A DNA stretch of 63,833 nucleotides, filler included, from Sphacelaria rigidula (GCA_964200075.2; 10 parts of 10 records of this genome joined end to end with filler, not necessarily neighbours in it); one strand, 5' to 3'; positions 14,930 to 40,136 are shown, counted from the first letter of the whole stretch. The notes: a model not told the origin generated them from the letters alone. Numbers and translations are program-made.

Positions 14930-17900
14930 CTGCAGACGAAACAGCTTCCCGATCCGCGTATACGCATCAGCTACGTCTATCGTCTCGGCCTCGCCCAACT
15001 TTCCCAGGCTGTCTCCATACGTCACCGCCTCAAGCCGCGTATCGTTGGACAGCTCCTCCAGTGATCGCCACAAACGGATCGGGGTGTACAAGTCCTTTTC
15101 TTCATAAAAGTCCTTGACCACGGACAGCCTGCCCAAGTACTGCGTTTGGGACTTCACAACACCGTCGACCAAGTCCTTGACCACGGACAGCCTGCCCAAG
15201 TACTGCGTTTGGGACTTCACAACACCGTCGACCAACTCGTGCCCGCCCCCGCTTTCATACTCGTTTTTGATGAAGTCAAACAGCTGGCCGTGTAGGCGGA
15301 AGCGATTTCCCACCTCATGCAATACTGCATTGCACGCTAGGTACTCAGCTTCTTTTCTGGCACCGCTGTGATCCTGCAATGTATACAGTGACGTTAAACA
15401 AGCCAGCGTTACACGCGCGCGATCCTACATTTCGACGGGCCTAACTGAAAGCGAGGTCTCATCACAGAGTAGTCGATGGAATGCTGGATTCCGAATTTTG
15501 CGACACGTCTCTCAGTCTACGTGGCAAGAGGTTCGTACCGTACCGACGTTGAGGCCATGTCCCTTAACCGACGCACGGCGAGTCCGGAACACGAAAGAGC
15601 GAGAGGTGGCAAACTGAACACAACTAGCTTCGGCATTACACTCAACACAAAACTCTTGGGTCGCCGTGAAACTAATGCGTTTCTTATGGCGTTCTCCATT
15701 CCGCAACCGCAGACGCTTGATACTGAAATCGGCTTGATTTTGGCACGGCCGTGAAGTGAACTTGCTGCTGACATCAAGCGCAGATCAAATTATAGCTATC
15801 AGTATACGAAACGAAACGCGAGCGCTGGATATCTTGAACTGCGTATGAGCTCATGGCATGAGAGAATCAAGCTATGCTGACCATCGGGTATACCAGTGCA
15901 AGCACCCGATACACAAAGGGGGGCAAACGGCTCCGTAAAGTTCCACCATTTTTCTCATAACCGTCGCTGGGCAATGCGTACATATCAAGTCATGCAGCCG
16001 ATGGAATTGCGCTTTTAATTGAACCGTACCTTCTTTCCCCAAAGTGCCATCAGCATCCCAGTTGATGCCACAACACCACCCCTGAGCACAACAAGGCTCA
16101 GAAAACTGTTTCGCGCGTCGTGACCAAACGATTCCAGGCGTATGGACAGAGCAGCGAACAACGAAATCTCGGACGGGTCGCTGGCAGTGCCGGTGCCTGT
16201 CTGCGTGCCTGAGCAAATTGCTTTCTTCTTCTCCTTGATCTGGAGGTGCAGCTTATCCCAGTATTGGGCAGAGTTTGGGCTTTCGGTAACACACGGGGGT
16301 GACCCCGCAATAGCTAAGGCCATCGCTAGCCGCCCGCATTCGTCGGCAACCTACGATAGACACATCACGCAGGAGCGGGCCGACGCAGGTGGATAACACG
16401 GAAAGACGAGTCCGGCGCAAATCAGTACTGCGTACAACCAATCGGCTGCCAAGACAACAACCTCGCTCGCAGTCCCACTTCAACAGCGACGCGTTTCATT
16501 TTGTGAATCGAGACATTATTGCGTCAATCAAGGAATTGACAATGACACGAACCATTGATGGGGTCATAGAGTCATGTTCTCTGCTGACATATAGTGACGC
16601 CTACTTGAAGCATCTCACAAACGCCTGCATCATGGACTCCTGGCTATCATACCTGATCAGCCTCTCTCTCCGGAAGTGCCCCCGCGCTGCTCCTCTTCTT
16701 CAGCAGCTCCCGCGCCTCCATTTGGCTCATGCTGCCCACCTCCATGTACCCCCCGGCCGCGGCAAGTACTGCGCGGTCACGCGTGGTCACGAGTAGCCGA
16801 AGTCCCGTAGGAGCCAGCTTGTCCACAACGTCTCGCTTCCACACATCGTCCACCACAACCAGACGAGGCAGGTCACTCTCTGCAACGGCCGCAGTCAAGC
16901 TTTGAATCACCCCTTCCGCATCGTCGAGGTTTCGTGGGCCCATGGGATCCACGATTACCTTGGCGGCTAGCCCCTCAAGGAGCGCTAGAAGTTGAGTCTC
17001 ATCGTCTCGTCCTACGCTAAGCCAGAAGATTCCTCCTCGGAAGTGCCTCCTGATGTCCGGATTGCGAACGACCGAAGATGCCAGGACTGTCTTACCCGCC
17101 CCCCCCGTACCGAATAGTACGTATGGATCACTGACAGGACCAGCCCCTGTGAGTTCAGAAACGATCTCGGACACAAGAGCAGTGCGCTCCACGTAGCTTG
17201 ACGGTTGCGTAGGCGCTTCAGGCGGATCCGTCGCCATATCTTCGGGCACGGCAAGATCCATCTTGGCACGTATTATTCTTAAATTCGCAGCTGCGTCAAG
17301 CATGGCAGCACTCGTAACGATCTTCAAGATTTCCTCGAGCTTTCTCTTGTGCGTCTTCATCTTGCTCCTGTCTCTGGCGTGCGAGCACAACCTTCGACAA
17401 CAAGGCAAGCAGCAGCCCACCTTACCGTCGAACTGTCTGGCAAACTTGGCAATTTTGTCAATCTCGTCTATCACCTGCTTCACAGCCATCTGGATTTGTG
17501 GGGGCAGCTCCGGCATTCGGGCATTTTCCAATATGATACTCGTGATCGACACGCAGTAGCTCAGGAGATCTATCAGTTCCTGCCGAGCAGCGGTAGCTCC
17601 TTCGACGGCGTCGAACAGGGCGCTGAGACCAACACAAACGGGCGTCACGACGCTCACATTAGCCGCATCTAACAACAGCTCAAACCCAGCGATTACCTCC
17701 TTAGTGAGAGTTTCTCCAGCCGTAGCCTCAGCCTCCTCCGCCCCAATAAGTAACGTTTGGTACCACGGCGTGTTTCTTTCGATGGCCTCCCTCGTTTTTT
17801 CCAGCGCCTATTGAACGACAAAATTGCACGCGCCATGCAGCACGCAGGGTAGCAGGTGCGACACGGCTTTCTTCGCTCCGATGGCTACAAATCGGTAGCA

Positions 17901-25881: not shown

Positions 25882-28800
25882 GACCCCGGGTACATTCATC
25901 TCAACAACTACTTCGCGAGCCTGGGCAGCCTGTCGCCCTCCATCAAACGTCAAAACAGGCTCGCCTCCATGTCCGAGACCTCAAAAAGCAACAGCAGCGC
26001 ATCGGAATCACCTGCAGCGAGAGCACCAGCATCAACAGCGTCAAGATCATCGTCAAGCGATGAATGCGCCAACGACAGCCCTGCACTAGAAAGAAAGGGA
26101 TCTCGGTCTTTCTTGGATGGGCTATTGGAAGCAGGCGTGAAAGAGCCAATGCTCGGCATCGCAAGGGCAGGGTACGCCAACACTGTGGGGGCCGCGCTAG
26201 AGGATACCGGGCTAGGAGGCGTTTGCTATTGTGAGGGCGAGTGGGATGTGGACGGGGATCACACTTTCTTAGTCAAGGTGATGTTCCCATTCCGCTGGAA
26301 CAGTAGTACAGCTGACAAAAAACTTGTGGAAATGTCTAGTTTCGTCCCAATTATTACCGATGTCCCCCTCGGGGGAGAAGCGCGGCACGTCCAGTTGTAT
26401 TGACGGAGTGCCTGTTTATCGTGGAGTTGATGCTTTTTCATCCTCCAAGATGGCGTTCAGGCTGAGCACGCTGCTGTGACCGTATACTAAAAGTCTGTTG
26501 CACTTGGTAACTCCGAAAGTGTTTCTGTGACAGCACGCGGTAGGCATTGGTCGGAAAGGATGCCAACTGAAGGATGCGGACCAGAAGGTCGTCTGAACTC
26601 AAACCATTGTCGTACAACAAACGAGTAGTTTCTATTTGAGATTCGTGAGTTTTGATGCCGCGTTGTCCCTTTGTTTTGTCTCGCCGCCTATCATCTATCA
26701 CGCGTTTGCTGCGCTTCCCCCGTGTGATAGGGTGGCTTAGGGCTCGTGGTCGACGAGCTGGCTTCCGGAATCAGGAGGTACGGGTCCGTCCGTCGTCCTT
26801 GAACTGCCTCACCTCCTGAATGTGGCATAGTAGGTGGTATGAGGAGCTGCATGGGCTAGCATTTTTTGTTCTCAAGTACGCCGTTGTGTGTAACATATCA
26901 ACCAAGAGACATGGTCGTCTGGTTTGAGGGCTGGGCAACTCGAGTATACTGTGCAACACTTGCGTCATCCTTTTTAAGGGGGGATACAAACGCTATGGAT
27001 AGTACTGTACACCCATTGGCCTCTCTGCTTTTTTCTCCCTTCATACTTGAAATTCCTTCCTTCCTCCTTCCTTCCTTCCTTCTTTCCTTCCCGCGGTACC
27101 AGTCGGCGATGTTGTCCAGGAATCAGTACATCTTTCCCCAAACACCTTCCTGATGTTTTGTTATCGGGGATTGGATCATGACTATCAGCATTCCCGAATC
27201 CGGTAGACTCCCGTCGATTTTTCATTGCTACGAGTACTCCCTTCCCCACGCTTTCAAAAACGTAAAAGAGATTATGCTCGAAAAGAGCATGTCTGCCGAG
27301 ATGCAATTATTCTCCCTACGCTTACACTGGACTAGCCATGCCGAGGTGCGGTGGCTGTAACAAGGTAGCACCGAAGGTGGGGCTCGAACCCACGATCACA
27401 AGATTGAGAGTCTTGCGCTCTACCGACTGAGCTACTCCGGCTTTCCTGTTTTACGTAACTTGTGGCGCAAACTCCACAAGACAAGTACCGCACGGCACTT
27501 TAGAGGCATTGGCGGCTTCATAGCGCTTGATCTCTCTACAATATGGCATGCCTACGATGCGCTTGAAAGCTTCTGCTTGAATCGATTTTCCAAACTAATT
27601 GAACCGCTTTGATTTTTACGACCTATGCAGCTGTGTCCAAACCAGCTGGCCTGCAGCAAAGGTAGACTATGGTACGCCTGGACGTGTACTTGCGACGTGC
27701 GAAGATGGTCGCACAGAGCAAGGCACTCACGTGGTCAGCACGCTGCCTCTCTCCGTCATGCAGGATGGGGTGAGCAGCCATTGTTTTCGTATCTAGAATG
27801 CAATTCCGCCGTTTGGTTTGCACTGAAGGTAAAGCGGTGTCCTGACTCACTGTGAAGCCTGGTGCTGAGTGGATGCCAGTGTGCATTCTAAGGATTCAAC
27901 AACCGAACTATGTGCAAGTAGTCGCATTTTGCATCCTTGTCGCTGTCAAACGGTGTGAAATGCTCTCGAAGCGCAATCGAGGCAATGAAATCCACGCGTA
28001 GACGAGAGGTCTGGCGGCTGCTAACAACACGAGAGACCCCTTGAGGGATTGATTTGTCGTTCGTAGTTGGCCCACCTGTTGACCTTTTGGGATCGTAGAA
28101 CCCCGGTGACACCCGCACAACGGCGCCGCTGCTAACGTCGCAAATATTTGTATTTGCCGTTCCATATACCTGTCAACCTTACCTCTCTCTCTATAGGACG
28201 TCGAGTTCTCGCCTCCTCTGCCGGAGATAAACATGAGGGCATTAAACAAAATGGGCATGTGCAGCGTTTCGAAGGTCATTCTGAAGTTCGATCAGCAGGT
28301 GCTTCCACCGCTCTTGCACAGCTGCATTTCTTCGGACAGCTTCATCCCAGAGTTCTGGTTCAGGTGTGAAACGGTAACCGTCTAGTGTTAGGCGTTGTGC
28401 AACCTCCGGGCCGTCCATGTCCGGTTCCGAGTGTTTTGTTTTTCTAGCCACGCTATCGAAATTTTTACATCATTTGGCCAAATGTCGAAACTGATGATGG
28501 AAGAAATCAACCGTGGATCGCGTTCGCCATGGTGACGTCATCGCTCACCTCTTGCGCAGTTTTCCGGGTTCCCCCCCATCAAGTCCAGACAGTACTTTCA
28601 GACAGTGTACCATAATATCATTCCAGACAACAGCCTAGGAGTTTTCCCGGTTTTTGACAAAACATATCGCCTCTTCATCAACTGGTCATGTCCTTGTCGT
28701 GCATACTCGTACTCCAAAGAAGAGTATTACACATACTTGCACCCGAAAGGTCACGAAAATACGGCAGGATCCGGTGTCCTCTGTCCATGTCCTATTCACA

Positions 28801-30123
28801 TGTTTGAAATCCGCGCTGAGCCCCCCCCCTTTGCCACCGCTAAATATTGCTCGTCTCGCTCTTGCTCTCCATCAACTCGGTGTGGCAACACCCGGCCATT
28901 GTGTAGGCATCTTTCCAATACACCTGAAGGCGGTTACACGGTTCTCGCAGTAGGCTTCGCTGCCGGCCCCGCCGCCGATGCGATATCGGCACTATCGCAA
29001 GAGGAAGCACTGCAGAAGGCCTTGCAGCAGCTCGATAGTATGTTCGGCGGTAGGGATTGGCTGGTGGATTGCGGTGGGTGCACTGGCAAGGGCGACTGGG
29101 AAAACCACAAATCGTCGGAACAAACAACTTCAAGACAACTCTCGCTGAGCGGAATATCAACACATTCTTCCGATGATGACAACAGCGCGGCAAACTGCGA
29201 AGTGAAACGGAGGCACGCCGGCAGAAATGACCAGGATGTTGTCGGTGCTGCCGGTGAACAGACTGTGGTACCCGGAATGCTGCCCAGCGGTTGTTACGAG
29301 GGTGGCCTGGTGCATAATTGGGCAGATGAGCGGTTTGTGCGCGGGGGATACTGTTACCCGAAGCTGGAATTTGACGAGAACACTTATGCTGATGCTGCGT
29401 CTTCAGTGGGAAACAGGCTTTTTTTCGCCGGAGAGCATACAAACATCTCAATGGGGGCGAGCTTGCATGCTGCCATAGATTCAGGAGATAGGTGACCAAC
29501 AATTTTCCCTTGAGGCGATCTCAAATATAGATTTTCCCTGCTGTGACATCACATATTCCGCAACAGAAATGAAATCACGATGACTTACGTCACTTTGATG
29601 GGTTTATTTTTCACCTACTGCATGTGTTGTCGACCACTCAACTCTTATTTTTTGTAGACGATTCGCGATGGAGATTTGTGGGTATTTTGACGCGACTTGC
29701 TTTGCTCATCTGTGTCTTCAGCAGTCGAAACATTCATAACATAGTTTGCTCCTATTAAGAGCAGTCAACCCTCTCACAATAGAGTTTGCTCTCCATTACT
29801 AGGATCGATCGTCGGAATGACCGAACAAGCGTGAAATCCAATATCTAGTGGGTTTGACTTGATCGATTTACCTGTGACTGCTCATCTGCCGACTAATACG
29901 ACACACATATATATATATATATAAATTACCATCATGATCCGGGAGTAGGGCCGCATTGGAGGTGGCGACGTCAGTGAAAGCCGAGCGAGAGGGGCGAGAA
30001 AGGGAGTTCTCGATCAACGCAAGCGCTGTCGGGAGCAAAGCTGTCGGCGATGGCGGCTCGGCGGGTACAAGCTCAATTGAGCGTGTCTCCTCCGCTGACG
30101 ATGAGCTCGCTGTCAGTACCTAA
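25882..30123 (+). CDS. Flavin-containing amine oxidase family protein (polyamine oxidase/LSD1-like catalytic domain); N-terminus outside the contig
   Basis: Six in-phase exons: 25882-26277, 26731-26777, 27631-27769, 28197-28363, 28907-29491 and 29949-30123 (TAA). Motifs: GGLGLVVDELA, VVSTLPLSVMQ, VEFSPPLP...KVILKF, HNWADERFVRGGYCY, RLFFAGEHT...LHAAIDSGDRAA. Confidence 0.9.
27369..27441 (-). tRNA. tRNA-Glu-CTC: Intact 73-nt tRNA with anticodon CTC (Glu) but a tRNA-Lys-like body; antisense within an amine oxidase intron
   Basis: Sequence GCCGGAGTAGCTCAGTCGGTAGAGCGCAAGACTCTCAATCTTGTGATCGTGGGTTCGAGCCCCACCTTCGGTG. Acceptor GCCGGAG/CTTCGGT, D stem GCTC/GAGC, anticodon stem CAAGA/TCTTG with loop CTCTCAA, T arm GTGGG-TTCGAGC-CCCAC. 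Confidence 0.92.
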
Positions 30124-36260: not shown

Positions 36261-38619
36261 GCTTCTGCAGCTGCTTTGTGAAGCACAGCATATGCTGCCG
36301 ATGGTTCGCCTCACAAGCTCTTCTCGTAAGGGGGCAGTGCGACATTATTCCGCCCTCAAAATTTCTTCGCGGTGAATGCAAATGATGTGGTACGATTTCT
36401 CGTCTTGGCATACCATGCACCATTTCCCACTAAACGACGAGCCTCCGAATAGATTTCTCGTTGTTGGTAAGCTGCTCTCACTGGAGGATTAGCCCCTGCC
36501 TCCAGAACCCGGGTCGCTAACTCGCCGTACGTTGGACAGGTTTCTAAGGGATGGCAGGAGTGCGTGTTGTTTGGTGAAAGAGACTGCGCATTGCATACGA
36601 TAATCAGGGAATTCGGGACTGAGAAACACGACTGTTGACAAGGGCTTACGCATACTTTGAGCATGTGGTCTGTAATAGAGACGTCCACCATAAGGTTTGA
36701 TATCCATCAACAGACTCTATTTTTACCCCAAAACGCAGCATTTAGCTATTCAAACAGGTAAAAGACTCATCGCTCGTCTCAGGTTGCACATGTAGCATAT
36801 TACCTGTACGTATTCATGTATTCCAGTATTTATCTCGTGCATGACCCTGGCTGATCTGCCCACATATAACGAAAGGCGTAGACTCGCGTCCAGAATTGAT
36901 GGATGACAACACAAGACATGTCCGAGTCGAGAGTGTACCCCACGTATCGGGGATGAAAAATTTACCCACCGCCTTAACTATGGACCATCTAGTCAACAAG
37001 TTACCTAGTTGAGTAGTTATTTACCTGCAGTTGCTGCCACACAACTATTTGTGTAACATTTTCATCCAGTAGTTGTCTACAGGTCACTAGTCGCACAGTT
37101 TTTCCGACCGAAAGTTGTCTACAGGCACGTAGTTGCGCAGTTATTTTACCCAGTACTTATCTAGACAAACACGTGAAAAAAAGAATAATAGTAGAGATGG
37201 ACCGATAGACGTGTCTTACCGAGACGAAAAAGAGCATGTTCCAAAATCACGATACCATCACCCTTTGATTGATCACGACGATAGCACTGTATTGTGCTGT
37301 TGTACCCCAAAAACCATGACTGACATGTGGATTGGATTTTTATCTGGGAACCTTGGAGTGAATATCGTTTATCGTGAGGAAACATAACTTTGCAACCAAA
37401 AGGGGTGCGTCCCAAAATATGGTAGACCTGAAAAGCAAGACACATGCAATTCTGAGGCCCACTGCCCACGGCTAAAAAAGCAACTTGTACATAGCTCGAG
37501 CAGTAGCTTCTGATCAGTTACGTATGAGGTCGTTGGGGTGGAATCATAACCTGTATAGAGTAGTCGACTAGCTGTTCCGGCGATAGTTGCTGTTACACAA
37601 CTAGCTGCCCTCGATTTCCATCCGAGATTTGAGGCTTGTTTACAGCTAACAAGCTGCGTAAATATTTCCGGCCGAGACAAGTTTGCATGGGCTAGTTGCG
37701 TGAAATTTTCGACCGCAAGTCTTCAACAGATAAGTCTGTGCACAGCTTTCCCATCAGATACAGGCTGGTTCACGCTTATTTACCTATAAACACTCATTCG
37801 CAAAACTTCATGTCGTCTTTGAGAGTTAGACCCTGACTTTTTGCACATGTTTCCTATGGATCAGTACGCAACTTTCGAACGTCGAGGGTTTTTTATTCAC
37901 ATTTTCCACCGTTTTCCGGGGGTCCCAGGGTTTGGGGGAGAAATTTGAATCCCGGACCCCCCGAAAAACGGTGAAAAAGTCGAAAAGTAGAAGAAAACGT
38001 CGTCTGTAGTAAGTTGCGCAATGACCCATAATGCGGCACAATTAGAGTTGTAAACTGGTTGCAAAAAATCACAACCAGTTACAGGTATCAGTTACAACTG
38101 GATAACTCGCGGCGGAGTCGCGTAGACACCCCCCCCCCCCCCTGAAATTGCGATTTCGGGTGAGGGACCTAGACCTGCCAGAAAGAAGGAAGAAATATTC
38201 CAGTCGTCAAAAGGACGAGGAAGAAGATGGACAGAATTGCCTCTGTGGCAAAGCAATTGAGANNNNNNNNNNNNNNNNNNNNNNNNNNNNNNNNNNNNNN
38301 NNNNNNTTAATTAATTAANNNNNNNNNNNNNNNNNNNNNNNNNNNNNNNNNNNNNNNNNNNNGTCCTGTTTCGCCGTCTCTGGCCACCATGTATCTCCTA
38401 GTATAGCCGTCGTTTTCTACCTACTGTCTAATGCATCAAACGGTTTCATCCCACCTTCGTTCACGTCCCGCATTTCCCCCTCTGGCAGGTCCCGTTCCTC
38501 CTTGTATAGTTCACATTCTGCCACTATATGACTTCTGGTCTCTATTGCTTTGCCACAGGGCAGTACTGTCCATCTACCTCCTCCTCCTTTCGACGACTGG
38601 TATATCTCTTTCTTTCTGG

Positions 38620-40136
38620 AACGACTGACAAAATTTAGTTTGAAACCGGAGCCAAACAAAGCGCACGTGGGGGCGCGAGAAACGCAATCCCTGGGTCATC
38701 GCATCTCGACCGACGGCATCGCGCCTGACTCTAAGAAAGTGGACGCGCTGCGATTAATGCCTATGCCGACCAATGTCAGTGAGCTGCGTTCGCTCTTGGG
38801 GAGGTTAAGTTATTATCGGAAGTTTATCCCCAAGATGGCCGCTCGTACCAAAGCCATCAATGGGTTGTTGGAAAAAGGGGTGGAGCTCACGTTCACGCCA
38901 GAACACGAGGCTACCGTTCACGAAATTCTGGACGATTTGTCTAGCACTAGGGTTCTGGCGTTTCAGACTAGGGGGGTGCGGGGGCACCAGGGTTTGAAAG
39001 CCGATCAGTTGGATTATCTCCAGCTGATGAGAGAACGGCAGGTAAAAGCGTACGAGTTGGTGAGGCAAGAAGAATTTTTGGTCAAAGCAAAACACGAAGC
39101 CAAGAACCAGGGTATTGAGGAAATGGCAAACCGCCGGCCAAAATGGCAAGCGGAGCAGTGGGTATTCGTGTTCGATGTTAAAAGCATCATCGCCGCGGGG
39201 GGTAAGGCGATGCAGGTGGCGTCGAGTAGAGCCCGGAAGTCTTTGGCGCTGTCAGCAAAGCTGGCTCAGTGTTGGACGGGGCCATACAAAATTTTATTGG
39301 TGGGACCGGGGGTAACCTCGGAGGGTGAACAGGTGGGTAGAAATTTACTGTTGCTGGAGGTTCGACGAAACGAGCCAGGGTCAACATGGATTCCAGGGTG
39401 TCAGTGGCGAGGTGTAAGAGGTGCCACAACCCCCATGAGGGCCGGACAAACCAAAATTTTGCCCTGGGGGCTAAGCCAATATATGATGAACAAATATTCC
39501 GAACGATCGCCGCCTCTGCATCTCACGGCGGAAGAAGTCACGATGGAGTTGGATACTCGCAGGATATTGCCTGATAAATTGGTGAAACACAGGTTGTCTC
39601 GGGGGATCGGTGGTAAGCTGGCGGTACAGTACATCACGCGTTGGGGCGTTTTGGATGTTCCTAGGTGGGAGCATGAAACCGACCTTGAGCAGTACGGCTG
39701 GCAGGTAAACTTGAAGTATTGGTTGGGCGAACCTACACAGGTTAAAGGTGACAATGCTCAATACCGTAAATGTCGCATCCATTTGTTGAGGCGCATAACG
39801 GCGCACGAACGGGGTGGATATTACGTGGCGCCGGGCTATAAGGTGTCGGGACGGAGGAAAGACGGGCTCGATGTGTATAATCCTGACATTGCCGGTTCTT
39901 ATGTGTATTTCAAAACGGCCTCCGCAGGTTGGCAGTTGTCCGAGGTGGTGGGACTGGAGGAGAACCCCAGTCAGCAGGAACGGCCGCACACCCTCCGCAT
40001 GATGGACTTGGGGCGCAAGTACGCGATACATCTTCAGTGGACAGCCCTCGAGGAGAGCCGGGGTCGACCGGGGGACTGGTATTGGTACTTCCACATCCTG
40101 TGGAAATCTGTTGAACATTTCGCGCATGGCTGGTGA
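38620..40136 (+). mobile_element. Ty3/Gypsy (chromovirus-like) pol relic with internal deletion
   Basis: RT C-terminus/connection (LGHRISTDGIAPDSKKVDAL...LRSLLGRLSYYRKFIP) is joined to a post-integrase region with a GPY motif (WTGPYKIL) and a chromodomain-like segment (VQYITRWG...WEHETDL). The homologous frame shifts briefly (RVSVARCKRCHNPHE in ORF 39386-39574). Confidence 0.9.

Follow-up and report, generated by a model that had tools for sequence, protein, structure and literature searches.

A probably decaying, isotype-switched Lys(CTT) tRNA gene with a CTC anticodon in Sphacelaria rigidula

Introduction

How should a tRNA gene be interpreted when its body and its anticodon point to different amino acids? 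The question is raised by a gene in Sphacelaria rigidula (GCA_964200075.2), located within a stretch of 63,833 nucleotides in which 10 parts of 10 records of the assembly are joined end to end with filler; we refer to this whole stretch as the window. The gene has the body of the Lys(CTT) tRNA family and the anticodon CTC, which corresponds to the glutamate codon GAG. The interpretation that we favor, and that we consider reasonably likely to be correct, is that it is a decaying, isotype-switched copy of a Lys(CTT) gene with little or no role in decoding.

An earlier note on this DNA had proposed three roles for the gene, namely a recruited Glu isoacceptor, a tRNA that inserts Lys or another residue at GAG codons, or a non-translational RNA. 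These roles are made less likely by a probable change at tRNA position 46, by damage to the terminator, by the lack of CTC at a sister locus, and by the fact that no contig with CTC was found among those aligned from a related alga.

The tRNA gene and its anticodon

ARAGORN finds a sole tRNA in the 63.8-kb window (27368-27441, minus strand), and calls it tRNA-Glu with anticodon ctc. The 73-nt gene at 27369-27441 belongs to the Rfam tRNA family RF00005, which it matches with 70.5 bits (gathering score 29, E 1.1e-14) over the full length of the model (positions 1-71 of 71). The canonical cloverleaf is also the minimum-energy fold, at -25.3 kcal/mol, an energy that is unremarkable when taken alone (z-score -1.57 relative to shuffles). 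The acceptor stem, GCCGGAG/CTTCGGT, includes the pairs G1.U72 and G5.U68, while the D stem consists of G10-C25, C11-G24, U12-A23 and C13-G22. The anticodon loop is CTCTCAA, the variable loop is TGATC and the discriminator is G73. The earlier note's description of a fully paired, 73-nt cloverleaf with this loop and G73 is thus borne out by ARAGORN, Rfam and the predicted fold; the strand, which it had left unstated, is the minus strand.

An anticodon that disagrees with the tRNA body might simply be an artifact, and the note had accordingly proposed a check of read support for CTC. We aligned contigs of public sequencing runs to positions 27290-27520 at 80% likeness. Five runs from two studies contain this stretch or a part of it. 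None of these was listed as an RNA run, and three further runs presumed to be RNA matched next to nothing of the sequence. Of the four runs whose contigs were aligned, X1, X3 and X4 gave cover and X5 gave none, and X4 is without cover on 27290-27361. X1 and X3 belong to one study, which is possibly the assembly's own source, and X4 to a second study, labelled as an algae metagenome. All depths given here are contig depths, which are not the same as true copy numbers.

In both X1 and X3, contigs with zero differences link the unique left flank via position 27406, where the third anticodon letter lies, to position 27436, and their depth (64.5 and 13.4, respectively) equals that of the flanks, i.e., the level of a single locus. 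CTC is thus carried by exact, single-locus contigs in two samples of one study. The bulk of the depth at 27406 is found in tRNA-like contigs with plus-strand A, which corresponds to CTT (1408.7 out of 1473.2 in X1, 172.2 out of 185.6 in X3 and 806.9 out of 806.9 in X4), and a mis-join between paralogues is conceivable. However, the residual G depth in X1 and X3 is exactly that of the single-locus contigs, which join the left flank through 27406 at flank depth. We therefore reject the explanation that the real gene has CTT and that CTC arose by an error of assembly or sequencing, which we regard as extremely improbable.

Part of the A depth at 27406 comes from other types of tRNA, i.e., a Met(CAT)-like contig, which aligns with five gaps, and a Lys(TTT)-like contig, which has six differences. 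The Met(CAT)-like tRNA lies on a 14,059-nt contig in X4 (depth 479.8) and was aligned to 27378-27435; its D and T arms are common to the Lys family. This tRNA type is also deep in X1 (674) and X3 (55), and may be organellar or multi-copy.

Descent from the Lys(CTT) family

We judged the isotype of the gene by comparison with the organism's own CTT family. A CTT-bearing contig covers 27369/70-27436/38 with two other letters, one of which is G>A at 27406, giving CTT. Its depth is 625 in X1, 109.7 in X3 and 274.4 in X4, which amounts to roughly 8-10 times the single-locus level in X1 and X3, with a higher ratio in X4. Moreover, positions 27409-27441, which hold the D arm and the 5' strands of the acceptor and anticodon stems, are common to the family with zero differences, at a depth of 140 in X3 and 350 in X4 versus 12-20 for single-locus flank contigs. 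With two differing letters over 67-69 nt in three runs, and 33 identical nucleotides at its 5' end, the window gene belongs by descent to the Lys(CTT) family, and the earlier view of it as a Lys(CTT) body in which T36 has become C holds. Several identical Lys(CTT) genes would yield such a contig depth, so the window gene would be one of about ten copies.

The location of the second difference is less direct. The aligner prints no differences near the ends of contigs, and we inferred the location from the contig graph. There is no break in the window contig between the flank and 27436, and therefore every 31-letter word from 27365, the last difference in the flank, to 27406 must be private to this locus. 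This in turn confines the second difference to 27375-27399. Contigs of a sister locus, described below, equal the window exactly up to 27395 and stop one unmatched letter later, at 27396, which is tRNA position 46. On this reasoning, the second difference is probably a change of G46 to A.

Comparator genes from public contigs fit this assignment. The pattern used to find them specified the D and anticodon arms, which are therefore uninformative in the comparison, and left position 46 free. In viral contigs, the pattern with CTT matched 74 loci; these contain 75 genes, of which 43 are distinct in sequence. All 75 have G46, while the window gene has A46. The closest of them, L038, is equal to the window gene at positions 8-65 except for positions 36 and 46, as expected from the contig graph. 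L038 lies on a 17.6-kb contig of a giant-virus bin in IMG/VR, with the Lys(CTT) tRNA at 68-140 on the minus strand and a partial second tRNA adjoining it; this could represent either a giant virus with a host-like Lys tRNA or a eukaryotic contig in a viral bin.

The same interval for the second difference bears on the acceptor stem. Since neither difference lies in the acceptor 3' strand, its positions 68-73, including both U's of the G.U pairs, are traits of the family, as is the 5' strand, which is shared at a depth of 140 compared to about 13 for a single locus in X3. The note had taken the gene's "own" fully paired acceptor stem as an argument for selection. This argument does not survive, because the stem with its two G.U pairs is that of the Lys family and is therefore no sign of selection on this copy.

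Although its descent is that of a Lys gene, the window gene departs from a working one. Its anticodon is CTC instead of CTT, it has A46 where the organism's own family appears to have G46, and it has no oligo-T terminator close behind it.

The sister locus and the terminator

A second version of both flanks of the gene is present. Across 104 nt, one side shows 12 differences and 1 gap, and the other shows 17 differences across 105 nt, such that the flanks of this sister locus are 84-88% identical to those of the window. The depth of the sister flanks equals that of the window's (72 versus 64-67 in X1, and 20.3 versus 17.2 for the right flank in X4), and the tRNA ends of the sister locus are identical to those of the window gene. 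Because all G depth at 27406 belongs to the window contig, the sister locus does not have CTC, and the accounting of depths suggests that it carries CTT. A sequence script found no second copy of the locus within the window. The sister locus could be either a paralogue or a haplotype that has diverged strongly.

We note separately that the flanks at 27290-27365 and 27446-27490 differ from their second version by 12-16%, at equal depth in every covered sample; the two versions could reflect a segmental duplicate or a permanently heterozygous region, e.g., a sex-linked one. A sex-linked U/V pair would likewise appear at 1:1 depth in any diploid sample. A SINE (short interspersed nuclear element) derived from a tRNA, which would occur in many copies with a common body unrelated to tRNA following the tRNA head, was also considered. 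We rejected it, as there are only two versions of the flanks, each at single-locus depth, and no repeat in the window.

The two loci differ in what follows the tRNA. The window gene has no run of four or more T's until 85 nt 3' of its end (27284-27281, by script), and the earlier observation that no oligo-T terminator immediately follows the gene was therefore accurate. By contrast, an unbroken run of six T's follows the discriminator of the sister locus at +4 to +9 on the tRNA strand. We reconstructed this terminator from the listed differences, which in X1 comprise two G>A changes (27364, 27365) and the omission of one base at 27361; X3 gives the same six T's, with the gap placed differently. 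In a Lys(TTT)-like member of the family, the loose end of the contig before 27369 reads T5-C-T7 directly after the 3' end. Given that the sister locus retains six T's at this place, the simplest reading is that the window copy lost its adjacent terminator through three small changes.

In X4, the right flank has 5 differences in 102 nt, which indicates a near relative. The family contig of X4 continues to 27438, and the break at 27436 that is caused by the CTC branch in X1 and X3 is absent from it. No CTC contig was found among the aligned contigs of X4, where the left flank is without cover and where contigs and the filter cannot prove absence. These observations suggest that the near relative is without the CTC mutation, and that the CTC event is probably private to the lineage of the window gene.

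Predicted charging and possible roles

Whether the gene could decode GAG depends in part on which aminoacyl-tRNA synthetase, if any, would accept its product, and we compared its sequence to published identity rules. For lysine, U35 was the first determinant described, and U36 is a determinant for class II lysyl-tRNA synthetase (LysRS; PMC9976931); the anticodon is likewise a determinant in mammals (PMC3923123). Because LysRS reads position 36, C36 takes away a determinant.

For glutamate, the set of determinants that we used is bacterial, as the available part of PMC9976931 gave no eukaryotic set. In Escherichia coli, this set consists of U34, U35, C36, A37, U11-A24, the triple U13-G22:A46 and the lack of a nucleotide 47, with G1-C72 and U2-A71 as weak determinants (PMC9976931). 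The anticodon region of the window tRNA is that of a tRNA reading GAR, with U35, C36 and A37. In the body, however, A46 is the sole match to the determinants of E. coli glutamyl-tRNA synthetase (GluRS), the corresponding features being C11-G24, C13-G22, a nucleotide 47 that is present, G1.U72 and C2-G71. A likely eukaryotic Glu determinant is A72 (Marck and Grosjean, as quoted in PMC3923123), and the window tRNA has U72. For aspartate in yeast, the set is G73, G34, U35, C36 and G10.U25 (PMC9976931), of which the window tRNA has three of five (G73, U35 and C36) and differs in C34 and G10-C25. Judged by these rules, the tRNA would most likely be charged poorly by any synthetase.

These considerations bear on each of the roles that might be envisaged. 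One is that the gene is expressed and its product charged with Lys, such that it inserts Lys at GAG at a low level as a natural mistranslating tRNA. Positions 36 and 46 aside, the body is that of a Lys tRNA; the A and B boxes are undamaged, the gene scores high against the general tRNA model, and it retains U35, the first-described lysine determinant (PMC9976931). Moreover, natural mistranslating anticodon variants are present in humans (PMC12084884, PMC12993449). However, LysRS reads the anticodon, including the lost U36, whereas natural mistranslators have been documented for the Ala, Leu and Ser types, the synthetases of which are blind to the anticodon (PMC11028032, PMC13010820). Without G46 and an adjacent terminator, the yield would be cut further. 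We consider this role unlikely.

Another is that the gene has newly become a functional Glu-CUC isoacceptor charged by GluRS, with a co-adaptive change at position 46. In E. coli, strong Glu determinants include U35, C36 and A37, with A46 as a further member of the set (PMC9976931); the perfect cloverleaf is kept, and some alloacceptor shifts persist between species (PMC3923123). Yet A46 counts in E. coli only together with U13-G22:A46, the absence of nucleotide 47 and U11-A24, and all of these partners are missing from the window gene; we thus rate A46 as unlikely to be an adaptive Glu determinant. U72 in place of A72, the acceptor stem unchanged from the Lys family, the broken terminator and the fact that the related alga of the second study yielded no CTC contig also speak against recruitment, as does the rarity of the combination elsewhere, i.e., a Lys-type arm with CTC was found once in metagenome contigs and zero times in viral contigs, versus the 74 loci with CTT. 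Overall, we find recruitment quite unlikely.

A related and more speculative idea is that T36C and A46 represent an identity switch caught in the act, from a Lys gene to a tRNA for GAG that accepts Glu or Asp and that differs between close algal relatives. Here A46 would aid the new synthetase, and loss of the terminator would keep the dosage low for as long as the new identity is imperfect. We deem this very unlikely.

Finally, the tRNA might be mischarged by the aspartyl-tRNA synthetase, which is of class IIb, or it might have a role outside of decoding, e.g., as a source of tRNA fragments or as a chromatin boundary element. The three shared yeast aspartate determinants (PMC9976931) favor the former, but G34 and G10.U25 are missing; as to the latter, no feature of the locus indicates a special non-decoding role, and its flanks occur in two versions only, at single-locus depth. 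Such explanations strike us as highly improbable.

Comparison to known isotype switches and pseudogenes

Isotype switching is a known and ordinary kind of event in the turnover of tRNA genes. Rogers and Griffiths-Jones (2014, PMC3923123) reported 30 alloacceptor and 41 isoacceptor shifts over groups of eukaryotes, five alloacceptor changes were described in Drosophila (PMC2997554), and an allelic survey of Caenorhabditis found isotype switches, both rare polymorphic and fixed, in three nematodes (PMC13010820). The window gene resembles these cases in that one base of the anticodon has changed, so that body and anticodon predict different amino acids, in that there are few or no changes outside of the anticodon, and in that the shift can be recognized through a locus with similar flanks that keeps the old anticodon. 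The sister locus, which appears to carry CTT, is such a homologous locus. Unlike the published partners, which are orthologues in other species, it belongs to the same organism, as a paralogue or a divergent haplotype. Among the published shifts, Asn/Lys and Met/Thr are repeated pairs, and no case from Lys(CTT) to Glu(CTC) is named in the parts of these articles available to us.

The earlier note had also mentioned, with reservation, Lys-like Glu tRNAs in other stramenopiles. We found no support for this. The available text of the literature on stramenopiles and brown algae, including PMC3531208 and PMC13578239, contains nothing relevant, which does not prove that such tRNAs are unpublished.

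The human mistranslating variants of tRNA-Ala, tRNA-Ser and tRNA-Leu (PMC12084884, PMC12993449, PMC11028032) arose, like the window gene, by a point mutation in the anticodon of a normal copy. Those variants are still charged because their synthetases do not read the anticodon, whereas LysRS does, and the window tRNA is therefore expected to be a poor substrate.

Decay of tRNA genes in multi-copy families is a further point of comparison, as changes to conserved nucleotides, such as G46, and to terminators arise there under relaxed constraint. Unlike in a typical pseudogene, the cloverleaf and the score of the window gene are intact, so a pseudogene call based on scores would miss it. The single match to the Lys-type D arm with a CTC loop in metagenome contigs, L001, has an animal-type Lys body and the same T36C change. 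Its acceptor stem differs from that of the window gene, its T arm is damaged (the gene scores 51.2 bits) and a T7 run follows at a short distance; it is an independent, visibly decayed case in an unrelated organism.

Proposed history of the gene and its difficulties

We propose that the window gene is a young, isotype-switched and probably decaying duplicate of a Lys(CTT) gene, in which a conserved nucleotide has also been hit and the terminator is broken. According to this hypothesis, a change of T to C at position 36 would have turned CTT into CTC in one member of the family, i.e., an isotype switch or alloacceptor anticodon shift. G46, a nucleotide conserved in all comparators, would have changed to A, and the adjacent oligo-T terminator would have been lost. 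Relaxed constraint on one of about ten copies would permit such decay. The A and B boxes are the internal elements of the type 2 promoter of RNA polymerase III, and a transcript initiated from the intact boxes, if it is still made, would have a trailer of at least 85 nt. With C36 removing a determinant for LysRS, and a body without known Glu determinants, such a transcript would presumably be charged poorly and decode GAG little or not at all.

Several observations weigh against this proposal. The structure is intact, with a score (70.5 bits) like that of five bona fide Lys(CTT) comparator genes from four loci (70.1-73.4 bits), a perfect cloverleaf and unchanged A and B boxes. A gene that scores like intact comparators is structurally sound, and this argues against a plain pseudogene. 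L001, the only other CTC gene with a Lys body that was found, shows visible damage, while the window gene shows none. A distance of 85 nt to the terminator is no obstacle to transcription, and which way the adjacent terminator changed is our reconstruction. Similarly, the place and letter of the second difference were deduced and are not displayed in the alignments, and the missing CTC contig in X4 could be due to loss in filtering.

A further difficulty concerns the number of changes. There are 2 changes in the 73 nt of the tRNA in comparison to the 12-16% divergence of the flanks, which is fewer than neutral decay since the duplication predicts; a rough Poisson estimate gives about 5 changes expected in the lineage (P ~0.12). 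Gene conversion or a recent origin would explain the low number of changes equally well.

Features of the locus and its surroundings

The features of the tRNA locus are listed in Table 1.

Table 1. Positions of the tRNA gene, its internal elements and downstream T runs in the window
Feature	Position	Strand	Basis
tRNA gene, Lys(CTT)-family body with anticodon CTC	27369..27441	-	ARAGORN, RF00005, fold, zero-difference contigs in X1 and X3
A-box region (tRNA positions 8-19), same as Lys family	27423..27434	-	within exactly shared 27409-27441
Anticodon CTC; position 36 is plus-strand G at 27406 (Lys family: plus-strand A, giving CTT)	27406..27408	-	contig depths
tRNA position 46 in variable loop, A; putative second difference from Lys(CTT) family	27396	-	contig ends and comparators
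B-box region (tRNA positions 52-62), intact	27380..27390	-	sequence; no family difference placed there
Putative remnant of adjacent oligo-T terminator, reads CCTTGTT	27359..27365	-	sister-locus differences applied by hand
First downstream T4 (85 nt after tRNA 3' end)	27281..27284	-	script
Further T4	27264-27267	-	script
T5, 109 nt downstream of tRNA	27256-27260	-	script

Elsewhere in the window, an open reading frame (ORF) lies at 28605-29495 on the plus strand. Its last 60 residues match the C-terminal end of the flavin amine oxidoreductase domain (PF01593, E 1.3e-11), and the ORF, located about 1.2 kb from the tRNA, probably represents the terminal exon of an amine oxidase gene. An ORF of 342 amino acids at 16647-17675 on the minus strand has an NB-ARC domain (PF00931, E 6.2e-15) and is probably one exon of a gene for a STAND-type NTPase. 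The longest ORF in the window, with 528 amino acids (38550-40136, plus strand), has no Pfam match at E <=0.01. A match to SNORD83 at 28446-28478 was treated as a chance similarity, given its score of 23.5 bits relative to a gathering score of 35 and its E-value of 0.24.

Implications

Programs that assign tRNAs by their anticodon label this gene as tRNA-Glu(CTC). The label would inflate the count of Glu decoders and distort analyses of tRNA adaptation or codon usage for this alga. Expression of the gene and charging of its product would make it a natural cause of Glu/Lys ambiguity at GAG, although nothing that we found suggests so. For the tRNA family itself, the locus illustrates, in a clean and young case, how an isotype switch starts in a multi-copy family, with a sister locus in the old state and a related population that is apparently without the change.

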